Positions 6,641 through 35,502 of a stretch of DNA of 64,000 bases are shown piece after piece. The notes under the pieces are model-generated. The model searched no databases. It saw only the letters and a program-made list of their open reading frames with translations, and was not told the origin of the DNA. The position numbers were made by a program, and so were the translations under genes. This DNA is from Promethearchaeota archaeon (lineage in GTDB: Archaea > Asgardarchaeota > Lokiarchaeia > Sigyniarchaeales > SOKP01): NCBI GenBank assembly GCA_019057865.1, contig JAHLWP010000001.1:128001-192000 (forward strand), in the 5' to 3' direction. Positions within the stretch are counted from its first letter, which is position 1. The number at the start of each line of letters is the position of its first letter.

Positions 6641-7789
6641 CTATTTCCTCCCGTTACCCCAAAAATTATATTTACCACGGCTTAAGATATGTTTCGGATC
6701 AATTGTATCTTTAATCTTTTTCATTAGTTCATAATAACCTTTCTGATAGCCTTGAATATTTACCATATGTCTACTCAGAATATCGCCAAACATATAGAAC
6801 ATTGCTCCATGCTTAATTAGTCTTTCTAAAAGGGATTTCCAAAGCTTAAGATTAATTTCTTTAATATTTTCATGCTTTTCACCATTATAATAGCTTGGAA
6901 AACTAGTAAATCCACAAGTTAACTCAATATTGCTACCTTCAGTTAATATAATTGGACCTGTGCCTGTAATTGGTCGCATTCCAGTTATCTCTAAAATTTT
7001 TTGCATGTCTTCAGAGTGTTCAATATCCCATTGATCTAAATCTTTCATGATCTTAGGATATGCATTAATAGGTACATGACATTCTGCATCTACAGGATCA
7101 AATCCAGGTATTAATCCCCATAAGTTGTGCGCTATTAACCAGTGTCCCTGTTCTTCATAATGCCATTTAGCTATATTTCCATCCGAGATTTCTGGGCCAA
7201 ATTCTTCTGCTTTTTTACCTAATATTATTTTATCTAGTTGTGTAACTTTTGCTTTTAGTTCTGTTTCCGAGTTTGCTTCAACTGTATAAAAAATTACAAC
7301 CCTTTTTCTTTTTAAATGTTCCCACATAGGAAACATTCCATATTGAATCCCAATAGATACAATTAAATCCATGAAATACATAGTATCATAAACATCAATT
7401 CCATTTTGCCTAATTTCAGTCATAATTTGAGCTGCTGTTTCAGCAGGTTTACAAGGCATTAAGAATGTTTTGTACTCTGCAAATTCTGGTTTAGGAAATA
7501 CTTGTAGAGAAACTTTTGTTTTTACGCCAAAGATTCCATTATCCCCACAAAAAAAACCTGCTAAATCAGGACCATTTCCAAATCTATTGAATGGTAATTT
7601 TGAATATTTATTAGCCTGAGAACCAGTTTCAATTATTTCTCCTGTTGGTAAAACTACTTCTAAAGAAACTAATTGGTTAGTACAAGGTCCATACTTGGCG
7701 CATCCACCACCTCCTACAGAATGATGAGAGAGTCCTCCTCCTACTGATGAAGTTAATCCAGATCCTGGACCCATGCATCCTATATAGAG
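6641..7789 (-). pseudogene. FAD-binding oxidoreductase (GlcD/D-2-hydroxyacid dehydrogenase-like, VAO superfamily), copy 3, 5'-truncated
   Basis: Homology to copies 1 and 2 begins abruptly at LYIGCMGPG (about 7789). The roughly 125 N-terminal residues with the PRGGG FAD loop are missing. Confidence 0.8.
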
Positions 7790-10093: not shown

Positions 10094-10266
10094 AAATCTT
10101 TTTCAAATGTTATAAGAACTCTCCTTTTAGTATAGTTTGGTACTTTGGATCTCGTTTATGAAAAGATATTTTCGTTATATAACTTAACTTTTTTTTTATT
10201 CATTTTTCCATATTGATCGATGAGTCATAATAATATATATCATAATATGATTATCATCATAAATCT

Positions 10267-10296
10267 TTCTGCAGTTATGGATAATTTCCAAAACCT
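10267..10296 (-). other. Predicted 30-nt BHB intron in the Fe-S gene remnant
   Basis: CUGU-[AU^A]-GGUUUUGGA(AAUUA)UCCAUAACU-GCAG-[AA^A]-GA. Same position and length as the intron at 13068-13097. Confidence 0.72.
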
Positions 10297-10349
10297 ATAC
10301 AGGAGAATATGGCTTGCCATTCTTTTTTTAAATGTTTCAATTCAGTCAT
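10267..10349 (-). pseudogene. Remnant (exon 1 plus intron) of a second HdrD/GlpC-type Fe-S gene
   Basis: ATG 10349 gives MTELKHLKKEWQAIFSCI, nearly identical to MSELKHLKKEWKAVMSC at 13150, and sits in the same position after the FAD gene. No recognisable exon 2. Confidence 0.8.
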
Positions 10350-10350
10350 T

Positions 10351-11868
10351 TTATTTTTCACCCCAAAAATTAAATTTTCCTCTACTTAATATCATTTTTG
10401 GATCTAAAGTTTTTTTATTTGATTTCATTACATTATAATACTCTTCTGAATATGCTCCGATATCAACCATAACACGAGACATATAATCTCCCATCATGTA
10501 CCATTGTACACCATGCTCAGTAACTCTTTTCAACAGAGATTTCCATAGTTTTATATTTATTTCATCGATAATTTTATGGGCTTCTCCATTATAGAAACTC
10601 CAGAAACTAGTAAACCCACAAGTAATTTCTACATTAGTTCCATCTATTAATAGAATTGGACCACTTCCTGCAATACATCTTATTTTAGTAATTTCAAAGA
10701 TTTTTTGCATATCTTCTTGATGCTCAAAATCCCATTGATCAATATCATCTAAGATACTAGGATATTGTATTATAGGACTAAAACATTCGGCTGTGAGAGG
10801 TTGTATAGTAGGAAAGATTCCCCATAAATTATGATAGAATTGCCAATGTCCTTGTTCAGTATAATGCCATTTAGCGATATTCCCATCTGATATTTCAGGT
10901 CCTAGTTCTTCACTTTTATTTTCCACCATAATCTTATCTAATTGCCTTATCTTTTCGTCTAGCTCTTTTTCAGAATTTGCTTCTATGGTATAAAAGATCA
11001 TACCTCTCTTTTTTTTTAGATCATCCCATAATGGCAAAAATTTTTCTTGCGTCCCAAATCTCACAAGCAGATCCATAATATACATTAAATCATAAACATC
11101 AATTCCTTTTTGTCTAATCTCACTCATCATCTGAGCAGAAATTTCAAGTGAGTTTCGAGGCATTAAAAATGTTTTATAACCAGCATATTCAGGTTTAGGA
11201 AAAACTTGCAGTGAAACTTTTGTTTTTACTCCAAAAATTCCATTATCACCACAAAAAAGTGCAGCTAAATCAGGACCATTTCCAAATCTATTAAATGGGA
11301 ATTTTGAATGTATATTTGCTTGAGATCCTGTTTCAATGATTTCACCAGTTGGCAAAACAACTTCCAATGAAACTAGTTGATTAGTACAGGCACCATACTT
11401 AGCACATCCACCACCACCTACTGAATGATGAGAAGGTCCTCCTCCTATTGATGATGTCAATCCAGATCCTGGACCCATACACCCTGTGTAAAGCCCAAAA
11501 TGACATAAATATTCATTTAGTTTACTTCAAGAGATACCAGCTTCCACAGTAACTATTAAATTATCTATATCCAAATTCAATACTTTATCCATACTTTTTA
11601 GATCTAAGACAATTCCAGTATCTCCAATAGGTTTACTCCCTCCAAACTCACAGTCTCCACCACCTCGAGGGATAACTGGTACATTCTTTTCATTGGCAAT
11701 TTTGAGAATATATGAAATTTCTTCTGTAGTTTTAGGACGTATAACAATATCAGGAACACCTTGAAGATTGGAAGTAACATTCCGGGAATAAGCGTGTCGA
11801 ACATATAAGTCATTAGATATCCTATTTTTGGACACTATTCTTTCTAATTTCTGGTACAATCCTGACAT
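10351..11868 (-). pseudogene. FAD-binding oxidoreductase copy 2, with in-frame TGA (11527-11529) at a Trp position
   Basis: ORFs 11527-11868 and 10351-11478 share one frame: EAGIS*SKLNEYLCHFGLYTGCM versus EAGISWGKLNEYLCRFGLYTGCM in copy 1. Span is 1518 nt, the same as copy 1. Confidence 0.82.
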
Positions 11869-11887: not shown

Positions 11888-13150
11888 TTATAGTTTAGAT
11901 GCAATTAGGTCAATTATATCAATAACTTTAATTTTTTCTTTGATTTCTGGCTCCATTTCTTCATAAGCATTGCTTAGATTTCCGATGCAAAAAGGACAGC
12001 TAGTAGTTAAGATTTGTGCGCCTGATTCAACAGCTTCTTTTATCCTTTCTTGTGAGATTTTAAGAGCTAATTCAGAGAATTGACTCTTCATACCTCCCCC
12101 CGCTCCACAACACCAAGCATTATTTTTATTTCTTTTCATTTCGACTAATTCAATTCCAGGTATTTTAGAAAGAACTTCTCGAGGGATTTCATAAAGATTC
12201 ATATGACGTCCTAAATGGCAGGGATCATGATAAGTGACTTTAACTCTTTCCATCTCTTCTTTAAAAGATATTTTATTGTTATTGATTAATTCCACCAATA
12301 TTTCTGTTATGTGTTTCACTTCAAATGGTAATTCATAGCCTAGTAATTCAGGATAATCTTTTTTCCAAGTTCTATAACATCCTGCGCAAGCTGTAAATAA
12401 GGTTTTAGCACTTTTATTTTTGAATTCATCAATATTGTGCTTAATCATTTCAGTTATAGATTTTTCATCACCAATCCTTATAGCAATAGAACCACAGCAC
12501 CACTCATCTTTAGACATTGCAATTTCTATTCCTGCTGCTTTCAATATTTTCATCATGCTTTTTAGCGTTTCTACTTGTCTTAAGGGCATGGTACACCCTC
12601 CAAAAAACATTAAGTCTCCCTTTTCCTTAATCTCAGGAAATTCCTTTATCCAATCAAATTTTTTATCTTTATCTTCTCCATAAGGATTCTTCATATTATC
12701 ATCGTTCATATACTCGATTAGATCACCATGTCCATCCAGAGGAGCAAAACCAGCCTCAACTAGATCCTTTCTTAATGCTTCCCATACTTTTACATGATCG
12801 ATCCAATTGCTTGTGGGAAGAACAATATATGGATTCTGAGACATATGGCAAACCTCAGTACAATTCCCACATTCGCTGCATTGGTAAACCCATTCAGCAA
12901 GTTCTCTACTCAAAGGAATTTGACCTTCTAAAATGCTCTTGAGAACATTCATTCTTCCCCTTGCAAAATATATTTCAAAACCTTCCTCTTCCTTAGCTTC
13001 CAATACAGGACATGTTAAATATCTACCAACAACAGGTCGAATGGCATACCCACAATCTCCGCAGCCCAAATATAGATTCCAGGAGCTCTAGAACCTTATA
13101 CACGACATGACCGCTTTCCATTCTTTCTTTAAATGTTTCAATTCACTCAT
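11888..13150 (-). CDS. HdrD/GlpC-type (Fe-S)-binding oxidoreductase subunit, intron-containing (exons 13150-13098 and 13067-11888; 410 aa spliced)
   Basis: Spliced N-terminus MSELKHLKKEWKAVMSCMGCGDCGY restores CxxCxxC. Also CSECGNCTEVC, EWCCGS, YHDPCHLGR, CCGAGGG and SCPFC (CCG domains). Confidence 0.88.
13068..13097 (-). other. 30-nt bulge-helix-bulge mRNA intron containing an in-frame UAG
   Basis: GUC-GUGU-[AU^A]-AGGUUCUAG(AGCUC)CUGGAAUCU-AUAU-[UU^G]-GGC. Removal gives UGU AUG GGC UGC (C-M-G-C). Confidence 0.85.
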
Positions 13151-13151
13151 T

Positions 13152-14669
13152 TTATTTTTCACCCCAAAAATTAAATTTACCTCTACTTAAAATCATATTT
13201 GGGTCAACAGTTTTTTTGATTGATTTCATTAAATTATAAAATTCTTCTGAATAAGCTCCAATATCTACCATGAAGCGAGACAAAAAATCACCCATCATAT
13301 ACCATTGTACTCCATGTTTTATTACCCTTTCTAAGAGAGATTTCCATAATTTTATATTTATTTCTTTGATGATTTCATGGATTTCTTCATTATAATATCT
13401 CCAAAAGCTGACAAAACCAGTTGTTATCTCAACATTATTACCGTCTACTAGAGGAACGGGACCACTACCTGATATAGGACGAGTTTTCGTAATATCAAAT
13501 ATTTTTCGCATATCTGCTTCATTTTCTATATCCCATTGATCAACATCTTGCAAAATTTTGGGGAATGCACTAATTGGGCAAAAACATTCAGCTGATAAAG
13601 CTTGCATTGAAGGAAACATTCCCCATAGATTATGATACAATTGCCAATGTCCTTTTTCAACATAATGTCATTTAGCAATATTTCCATCAGATATTTCTGG
13701 ACCTAAATTTTCAGATTTTTTATTCAAAATCATATCATCTAATTTCTTAACATTTTCATTTAATTCAACTTCAGAATTTGCTTCTATAGTATAGAAAAAC
13801 ATTCCTCGCCTACGTTTTAAATGTTCCCATAACGGAAAGAATCCTTGGTCTGATCCTATAGCAACCACAACATCTGGAATAAACATCGCATCATAAACAT
13901 CAATTCCCTTTTGTCTAATTTCATTCATAATCTGTGCTGCTGTTACAGCAGATTTACGAGGCATTAAAAAAGTTTTATATTCTGCAAATTCCGGTTTAGG
14001 AAATACTTGTAAAGAAATTTTTGTTTTTACACCAAAGATTCCATTATCCCCACAAAAAAGACCTGCTAAATCAGGCCCATTTCCAAATCTATTGAATGGT
14101 AATTTCGAATATTTATTGGCCTGAGAACCGGTTTCTATTATTTCTCCTGTTGGTAAAACTACTTCCAGAGAAATTAATTGGTTAGTGCAAGCACCATATT
14201 TAGCACATCCTCCTCCACCAACAGAATGATGAGAAATACCCCCACCTACTGATGCACTCATCCCAGAACCAGGTCCCATACACCCTGTATAGAGTCCAAA
14301 ACGGCACAAATATTCATTTAGTTTTCCCCAAGAAATTCCTGCTTCAACTGTTGTTATGAGATTATCTTCATCTAAATTAATAATGTTATTCATTCTTTTC
14401 ATATCTAAAACTATACCCCCATCTCCAATAGGTTTGCTTCCACCAAATTCGCAAATACCAGCTCCACGAGGGATAACAGCTATATTCTCTTCATTGGCAA
14501 TTTTAAGGATTTCTGAGATTTCTTTTGCATCTATTGGTCTTATAATAATATCAGGTACTCCTTGTAAAACAAGATCAACATTTCTGGAATAAGCATGGCG
14601 CACATAAATATCATTTGAGAGAAACTCTTTTGATACTACTTTTTCTAACTTTTTGTAGACTTCTGACAT
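13152..14669 (-). pseudogene. FAD-binding oxidoreductase copy 1, with in-frame TGA (13668-13670) at a Trp position
   Basis: DGNIAK*HYVEKGHWQLYHNLWG versus DGNIAKWHY in both paralogs; otherwise full length (PRGAG, GPDL..F.GDNGIFGV, DPNMILSRG). Confidence 0.8.
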
Positions 14670-33982: not shown

Positions 33983-35502
33983 ATGTCATATAAATTACCA
34001 GACGAGAAAGATTTAGAAGCTATGATAGGCATTGTGGGAAAAGAATATGCTACAAATAATAAAGCTATTACTGCGTCTTACCTGTCGAAATCAGTAATGG
34101 GTTTAGAAATCTATTATCCAAAATCGGATAATGACTAAAGAGCCAAATCCCTGATATCGTCGTTCGACCGAAATTTGTTGAAGAAATCCGTAAAATCTTA
34201 ATATATTGCTCTGCAGAAAAAATTGCAGTGAGTCCCGTTTCAGCAGGATTATCTGGTGGCTTTGCTTGCCCAACAATTAAGCCCGGTGGAGTACTTCTCG
34301 ATTTAGGAAGAATGAACAGGATTATTGAAATTGATACAGAGAATCGGTATGTCGTTGTCGAACCGGGGGTAACAATTGGTGAACTTTGGGCTTATATGCA
34401 TAAGAATACTCCAGATTGGGCGCCCCCTATACCAGATGGTGCTCCACCAGCCTCAACTGTTATGGGCGACGCTATTGATAGAGGTTTTTCTCTCTATACT
34501 TCAAGCGTTGGACCACAAGGAGATAATTTTATGTGCGGAGAAGTTGTATTTCCAAATGGTGATATTGTACGAACTGGCTCTTGGGCTCTTCCTTTTGCTA
34601 AACCTTTTTATAAATATGGGTTAGGACCTGATATTTGGTCAACTATTATGGGTAGTCAAGGAGCTTTAGGAGTGGTTACGAAAGTCGCAGTTAAGATTTT
34701 TCCACATCCTGAATTTAAGACAGTAGTTGTATGGGGTATGTCCAACCCTCATGATATGCAAGATTTAACGTTAGAAATTGGGAAACAAGAATTTGGAATT
34801 GCCCATAACACTGTTATGGTTCAAGGCGGAAATTATCATTTAGTCATGGCTCGATGGCCTAAAGATAAAGTACCCCATGATTATGAATTCTATAAAGAAC
34901 TAGGAATTAGTAAATGGTGGATGAATTGGGAGTGCTGGGCACAAACTCAAGAAGAGTTGGACTATGTAACTAATAGAATTAATAAAATGGCCGAAGATTT
35001 CAAGAAGAATAGAGCTAAAGATCCTGATGCATTAAAACCTCAGGAACTTCATCCGAAACAAATTGCAAGCAGGTTAAAAAAACCTAATAAAATTGCTATA
35101 CCCTATAGTTTCTGGGAAGCGGGATTTTTATTTATTACTTGGTACACTCCATGGAATGAATGTGCCCATTTTGCTGAAATGTATACAAAGGCAATGGAGA
35201 AATATGGATTCCCACCAGTTATGTGGATCGCGAGTATCGAACGCTGCCGACAAGCAATTTGTATGCCCATTATTTGTTTCGATTCGACTAACACCTCAGA
35301 ATTTGAAAGAGTTCAAGATATGAATAGAGAAACAACTGAATACGGGCTTAAACAAGGATGGTTGAATTATAGACCAGACCCATACATTCACGCTCCTCTT
35401 ACATATAGTCAAGCTGGAATGTACTGGAAATACTTAAGAAAGATAAAGAAGATGTTTGATCCTAATATGATAATGCATCCTGGGAGGCTTGCCCTTCCAT
35501 AA
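33983..35502 (+). CDS. FAD-binding oxidoreductase, intron-containing (exons 33983-34108 and 34141-35502; 495 aa spliced)
   Basis: Exon 1 MSYKLPDEKDLEAMIGIVGKEYAT...SVMGLE plus exon 2 SQIPDIVVRPKFVEEI...VEPGVT...GPD...GSQGALGVVTK...DPNMIMHPG. The ORF track shows only 34228-35502. Confidence 0.88.
34109..34140 (+). other. 32-nt canonical bulge-helix-bulge mRNA intron
   Basis: GGU-UUAG-[AA^A]-UC(U)AUUAUCC(AAAAUC)GGAUAAU-GA-CUAA-[AG^A]-GCC. Excision removes a UAA stop and the frameshift. Confidence 0.9.

Follow-up and report, generated by a model that had tools for sequence, protein, structure and literature searches.

A probable 5' relic of an intron-bearing Fe-S oxidoreductase gene, with part of a nested second intron, in a Promethearchaeota genome

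Why does a Promethearchaeota genome carry, close to an intact Fe-S oxidoreductase gene, a second copy of that gene's start that runs into a short hairpin at the very codon at which the intact gene is interrupted? The window analysed here is the whole 64,000-nt stretch from position 128,001 to 192,000 of contig JAHLWP010000001.1 (assembly GCA_019057865.1), and a first-pass annotation of it had described the second copy as a paralogous remnant with a same-site intron. We consider it very likely that 10246-10349 on the minus strand is what remains of the 5' end of a GlpC/HdrD-like Fe-S oxidoreductase gene (domains Fer4_8 and two CCG), a non-functional stub with exon 1, a complete bulge-helix-bulge (BHB) intron and part of a second BHB intron nested in it. 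The features on which this reading draws are as follows.

6641..7774, minus strand: FAD-oxidase copy A, a 5'-truncated FAD2 (codons ~129-505), at the far end of the rearranged segment
8408-10093, plus strand: solute-binding-protein gene, convergent with the stub
10094..10245, minus strand: DNA past the breakpoint, not exon 2, with stops in all frames; 3' flank of the convergent solute-binding-protein gene
10246..10266, minus strand: first 21 nt of the second, nested intron, comprising the hairpin's 5' arm and loop plus 6 nt of its 3' arm, identical to L117:218-238 and aligned with G055 and G063
10267..10296, minus strand: intron 1 relic, 30 nt, scoring 55.9 bits with model R1; its fold and pair counts are given below
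10299..10349, minus strand: exon 1 relic, 17 codons, MTELKHLKKEWQAIFSC, differing from exon 1 of L117 at 4 of 51 nt
10351..11868, minus strand: FAD-oxidase copy B, a chimera, FAD2-type over nt 1-~800 and FAD1-type over ~810-1518
11888-13150, minus strand: intact Fe-S gene with Fer4_8 and CCG domains and the same 17-codon start as the stub
13068..13097, minus strand: 30-nt intron of this intact neighbour, with central helix GUGU/AUAU and bulges AUA and UUG

The reading frame of the stub runs from ATG at 10349 to TGT at 10299, and the last four nucleotides of the exon 1 relic, CUGU (10302-10299), form the 5' strand of a central 4-bp helix, CUGU/GCAG, whose 3' strand lies at 10272-10269. Both bulges measure 3 nt, AUA at 10298-10296 and AAA at 10268-10266, and between them stands a 9-bp inner stem with one U-U mismatch, built from the arms GGUUUUGGA (10295-10287) and UCCAUAACU (10281-10273) around the 5-nt loop AAUUA (10286-10282). 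The stub has, in other words, the central helix and the two 3-nt bulges that define the archaeal BHB intron as a substrate of EndA, and every part of the 30-nt element that the first-pass annotation had placed at this codon, of other sequence and the same geometry as that of the neighbour, can be read at 10302-10266 (-). The outer helix consists, as had also been noted, of only 2 bp (C:G and U:A); it has 2-3 bp in the intact genes, with 81.5% of cells paired. Such an outer helix, which would here be used for splicing, is a relaxed form of the BHB motif, and PMC5829648 describes relaxed forms as accepted by (alpha-beta)2 and epsilon2 enzymes. By the rule that cuts fall between bulge bases 2 and 3 (PMC2738675), cleavage of the stub is predicted at 10297/10296 in AUA and at 10267/10266 in AAA. 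Joined at these positions the stub reads ...SC-I-D-L-stop, without exon 2, which gives no functional product. Its similarity to intact genes extends to 10246 and then stops, and in-frame stops follow; an abrupt end of homology with no open frame beyond it is the mark of a pseudogene fragment. Exon 2 had been called unrecognisable, and indeed none follows; it is absent rather than decayed, since the AAA bulge leads into the second, nested intron and homology ends within that intron at 10246, so that the breakpoint of the rearrangement lies inside an intron.

Intact intron-bearing copies were sought in related genomes and were found. The Fe-S gene has an ortholog in 35 of the 54 genomes of the genus, and an insert at the same codon, of 29, 30, 31, 59, 60 or 61 nt, interrupts 12 intact genes, eight of them in the genus, three in further MAGs (31, 30 and 29 nt) and one on the metagenome contig L117. 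These inserts are distributed as follows.

30 nt: G000 (the genome of the window), G002, G045, L238
31 nt: G007, G041, the second copy in G067, L236
29 nt: L244
double insert: G055 (60 nt), G063 (59 nt), L117 (61 nt)

All of these inserts occupy the identical phosphodiester bond; they are mostly out of frame or contain stops, and exon 2 is open in every one of the 12 genes. Insert-free orthologs number about 27 and mostly read ...SC-M-(G or N)-CGDC. The junction was read in 26 of them, 25 of which have TGY-ATG-(GGN or AAT)-TGY, the remaining one, the distant G027, having TGC-ATC. Cuts between bulge bases 2 and 3 (AU/A ... NN/G) give AU/G in all 12 intact genes, which is the ATG of the insert-free genes, so the TGY-ATG junction is exactly what such a cut predicts. 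In a 16-mer metagenome scan, from which 80 loci were listed out of 120 matching stretches that were mostly chance matches, model R1 kept among the listed loci L117 (clear) and L175 (weak, 23.6 bits, E 0.015). Over 104 nt the stub (10349-10246) is 92.3% identical to L117:135-238, a gene that continues past its inserts into an open 392-codon exon 2, and it is 87-89% identical to the genes of G055 and G063; in all three the element of the stub precedes an intact GCGDC exon. The intron of the stub differs from the L117 insert at 4 of 30 positions.

The 30-nt insert of the intact neighbour is in frame, carries a TAG and is followed directly by GCGDCGY. Between this element and that of the stub, a gap-free alignment (A3) showed seven pairs that are changed on both sides and still paired, one in the central helix and six in the inner stem, which bears out the earlier observation that both helices covary. 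MAFFT put the apical stem of nine sequences of 29-31 nt out of register, and a gap-free five-sequence alignment and one fitted to the model were therefore used instead. In the former, comprising four Fe-S elements and a tRNA-His intron that is described below, 88.8% of cells are paired and 12 of 16 pairs are changed on both sides, a level reached by none of 500 shuffles. In the latter (A6), nine Fe-S elements, fitted to the structure of model R1 and mutually related in sequence, have 93.7% of cells paired; shuffling lowers this to 72%, and sliding the partners to 40-45%. Changes on both sides occur in every one of the nine inner-stem pairs, and the central 4-bp helix is paired in 100% of cells while the Ser-Cys codons that form it vary. 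This covariation points to selection on the fold in the intact genes.

A different reading of the same inserts, that they are inactivating insertions, either small mobile hairpins or local duplications, and that all insert-bearing genes are unspliced pseudogenes, is in our view distinctly improbable. It could appeal to nonsense codons in the nearby FAD genes of this genome, since an in-frame TGA stands at one conserved Trp codon in each full-length FAD-oxidase copy, the two sites (11527-11529 and 13668-13670, minus strand) being different ones. Both sites are TGG in all orthologs read, from about 25 related genomes, and the two TGA therefore look like genome-specific nonsense mutations or errors. 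With such TGG-to-TGA changes in both adjoining FAD genes, decay may be affecting the entire cluster here. In addition, over 15 nt the 5' end of the insert agrees with the beginning of exon 2 at about 10 positions, a resemblance that allows an origin of the insert by local duplication. Inactivation is nevertheless hard to reconcile with 12 genes in different genomes in which exon 2 is still fully open and exon 1, Cys codon included, is conserved, with a site that is always the same phosphodiester bond, and with a 4-bp helix that covaries with synonymous changes of the Ser-Cys codons while the bulges remain 3 nt.

We return to the reading in which the introns would be spliced in the intact genes, for which L117, G055 and G063 are informative. 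Their inserts are double, with intron 1 (29-30 nt) followed by intron 2 (30-31 nt). Intron 1 has the central helix UUGU/GCRG and the bulges AUA and AAA, and its GCRG strand is used again for the central helix of intron 2, together with CUGC, CCGC or CUGA: this second helix is GCGG/CUGC in G055, GCGG/CCGC in G063 and GCAG/CUGA in L117 (3 of 4 bp), and one of its pairs is G:U, G:C and A:U across the three genes. Intron 2, the hairpin of which is weak in G055 and G063, ends in the bulge AAG or UUG directly before G-GGN-TGY. Excision of intron 2 first turns AAA into AAG and leaves a motif like that of G007 or G041; the inner intron would have to go first, because this very change creates the final splice site. 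Were the first motif cut first, a dead-end product would result, which we counted against the nested model. A single BHB across the whole insert of 59-61 nt was considered and rejected, as UUGU can pair with the terminal CUGC/CCGC at just 2 of 4 positions; if the introns are read as nested, both helices pair at 4 of 4. The idea that the neighbour's 30-nt intron descends from a fusion of the two nested introns was likewise dropped, the match of about 8 of 13 nt at its 3' end being too weak.

In the mechanism that we propose, the tRNA splicing endonuclease EndA would remove the inserts of the intact relatives from the pre-mRNA by a cut after the second base of every 3-nt bulge, and the RNA ligase RtcB would rejoin the exons, which would restore C-M-G-C-G-D-C, the first cysteine motif of the Fe-S cluster. 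The genome encodes two EndA paralogs (PF01974; C71:81890-82114 and C69:38574-38822) and one RtcB (C75). At the present locus, a rearrangement would have severed the gene within the second intron, so that the stub now follows a chimeric FAD-oxidase pseudogene; if transcribed, the stub would release at most a 30-nt circle.

The surroundings of the stub bear on its origin. It directly follows the stop codon of FAD-linked oxidase copy B, of which nt 1-~800 are 83-97% identical to the FAD2 gene of G012, and for the 2.5 kb between the stub and copy A no counterpart was found in the five nearest genomes, initial weak matches not being upheld. A tree built from the 440 nt upstream places the stub together with a similar one in G041 (SH-aLRT 93, 84% identity). 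The earlier statement that the intron predates the duplication can be kept in the form that it predates the event that formed the stub, but the stub is no simple duplicate of the neighbouring gene, its nearest relatives being alleles of other lineages. It is best read as a fragment of another FAD1-Fe-S allele that was caught in the rearrangement. The sister stub (L058, G041:C32:1-545) consists of a FAD1-like 3' end, an exon 1 relic and a degenerate hairpin, and lies about 10.5 kb upstream of the intact, intron-bearing Fe-S gene of G041. In this sister, TCT replaces the Cys codon, no proper bulge remains, the central helix is lost and 16 nt have been inserted. Because it has decayed, the selection on the fold that had been claimed from the two copies of the window holds for the intact genes and not for the stub, which is probably drifting.

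That the stub is instead kept for a function, as an EndA-processed small circular RNA or as a leader peptide of 20-24 residues, is very improbable. In favour of a function, the motif is no less regular than that of working genes, and pairing survives all four differences from L117 in the 3' arm; however, these differences may all have arisen on the functional L117 lineage, and pairing is preserved by any transition because the opposite 5' arm contains G and U only. The decay of the G041 sister also speaks against a function, and an intact stub of this kind was found in none of the other genomes searched. The stub lacks exon 2 and has no function for the cell.

Somewhat less probable still is a coincidental hairpin, in which case the stretch after TGT would be decayed coding sequence of an intronless CIGCGDC gene (C-I-G-F-G-N-Y), a resemblance to which the first-pass annotation had itself drawn attention. 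The match of ata-ggt-ttt-gga-aat-tat to at?-ggc-tgc-gga-gat-tgt at about 12-13 of 18 nt favours this, as does the modest folding-energy z-score of only -1.9. The minimum-energy structure of the stub does recover the inner hairpin, the AUA bulge and the central helix, but with such a z-score the fold alone is weak evidence. A scan of the whole genome for the bare geometry (4 bp / 3 nt / >=8 of 9 bp / 5-nt loop / 4 bp) gave 969 matches in 8.5 million positions against 913 in a first-order Markov control; at about 1e-4 per position, the geometry is common genome-wide, yet unlikely to arise by chance at a single pre-specified codon. Moreover, the 30 nt are far closer to the inserts of L117, G055 and G063 than to coding sequence, the true GCGDC exon of these genes lies 29-31 nt further on, and over the following 21 nt the stub agrees with intron sequence of L117 at every position. 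With 87-92% identity to inserts that precede an intact GCGDC exon, the resemblance to CIGCGDC loses its force as an explanation, and the related genomes yielded no intronless version of this copy in which the stretch aligns codon by codon to CIGCGDC. Model R1, applied to the genome of the window, recovered only its three training members, so the intron family that it describes is not widespread in that genome.

Least credible of all is that the gap is skipped in translation, by ribosome hopping of the phage T4 gene 60 type, or that its TAG is read as pyrrolysine, for although hopping would suit a coding gap this short, with its hairpin and a stop soon past the take-off point, and the in-frame TAG of the neighbour's insert would suit read-through, reading the 12 inserts gave no matched take-off and landing codons, the inserts, 29-61 nt long, represent each of the three phases and their stops include TAA, TAG and TGA, read-through would disrupt the CxxCxxC motif, and a conserved 4-bp helix with two 3-nt bulges is a requirement of EndA and not of hopping.

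A BHB intron in the cbf5 pre-mRNA of Crenarchaeota was reportedly described in 2002 by Watanabe. In this pre-mRNA the predicted cuts lie between bulge bases 2 and 3 (Yokobori 2009, PMC2738675), and for BHB introns in archaeal protein-coding sequence the literature searched documents cbf5 only (PMC2738675); the recent Asgard papers in that literature treat tRNA introns only. The introns of the Fe-S gene resemble that of cbf5 in being short BHB introns of a protein-coding gene with predicted cuts at bulge bases 2/3, and in their patchy presence with lineage-specific loss among close relatives. They differ in their host, a GlpC/HdrD-like Fe-S oxidoreductase gene of Asgard archaea (Promethearchaeota), in their lengths of 29-31 nt, and in that three genes have another intron inside the 3' bulge of the first, and the case studied here is a truncated relic that lacks exon 2; in addition, the splicing of cbf5 was shown by cDNA, whereas that of the Fe-S introns is predicted from sequence. 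With the non-canonical BHB introns of archaeal tRNAs, including the multi-intron tRNAs of Asgard archaea (bioRxiv 10.64898/2026.10.13.758758; PMC11291895), they have the motif and the enzymes in common. The host of the Fe-S intron is, in contrast, an mRNA, so that its excision must preserve the reading frame. Introns within introns are known as twintrons from Euglena plastids, and there, as in nested or multiple tRNA BHB introns, the inner intron is likewise removed before the outer splice site exists; in the present pairs, by contrast, both members would be BHB introns spliced by protein enzymes in an mRNA, and they share one 4-nt strand (GCRG) and a bulge. The nested pair and the fossil stub are the unusual features of the system.

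BHB introns occur at a single codon of an Fe-S oxidoreductase gene in no fewer than 12 Asgard genomes or contigs; they have been lost or gained repeatedly and include a nested pair. As a dated fossil of this system, the stub shows that the intron is older than the rearrangement; it gave the lead to the intact double-intron gene of L117 and marks a genomic breakpoint within an intron. For annotation, the consequence is that gene callers overlook exon 1 and the first cluster cysteine, the called 393-aa ORF beginning at an internal TTG.

On the exon 2 protein tree, the presence of introns requires at least five changes. The gene of G000, with a 30-nt intron, is sister to that of G012, which has none and is 96% identical, and L117, with both introns, is 97.8% identical over 1335 nt to the same intronless G012 gene. 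Exactly at the exon 1/exon 2 junction, G012 (L070, G012:C70) and L117 differ at about 10 of 27 nt, and the junction of G012 resembles the AIMSC-MNCGDC alleles of other species. This pattern suggests that the intron of G012 was lost through recombination with an insert-free allele.

Another intron of the same layout lies close by. The tRNA-His(GUG) gene at G000:C23:125994-126096, about 2 kb before the start of the window and 14 kb from the stub, is interrupted between its anticodon stem and T arm by a 30-nt non-canonical intron, with central helix CCCU/GGGG and bulges AGA and AAA. Its layout, 1+9+5+9+4+2, is identical to that of the stub's intron, and it is kept across the genus with compensatory changes. 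The two introns match at 19 of 30 nt, which only four others of the 22,277 geometry-compatible 30-mers in the genome reach (about 2e-4 per comparison, or about 0.01 allowing for about 50 tRNA introns), a likeness that is suggestive of a common origin. A wider idea, which we put forward tentatively and hold to be rather unlikely, is that small BHB introns in Asgard protein genes are mobile, recombining elements that drive the exchange of gene fragments. It is raised because one intron is nested in the splice-site bulge of another, because presence differs between sequences that are 97.8% identical (none in G012, two in L117), and because rearrangement or mosaic boundaries fall inside or beside the intron: the stub breaks in intron 2, G012 has a foreign patch of 27 nt at the junction, and L117 combines a G055-like 5' part with a G012-like exon 2. 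As part of this idea, the family may have been seeded from the neighbouring tRNA-His intron. If true, the exchange of gene fragments in those archaea that are most closely related to eukaryotes would be driven by tRNA-type introns.

Some further observations concern introns elsewhere. The same tRNA-His has additional introns in many congeners, and ARAGORN reported for G000, which is 99.7% complete, only 30 tRNA genes, 18 of them with introns; many of its tRNAs were probably missed because they are heavily interrupted. Model R1 also matched a different gene at G009:C4:8465-8520 (L098), where a BHB-like 30-nt element with a 6-bp outer helix, GACCAC/GUGGUC, stands just upstream of a C-G-K-C-G-Y motif; this may be a paralog with an mRNA intron of its own at another site. 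Within the window, at 34100-34144 on the plus strand, another FAD-oxidoreductase gene is broken by what reads, from its letters only, as a BHB-like element with outer helix GGU/GCC, central helix UUAG/CUAA and bulges AAA and AGA.
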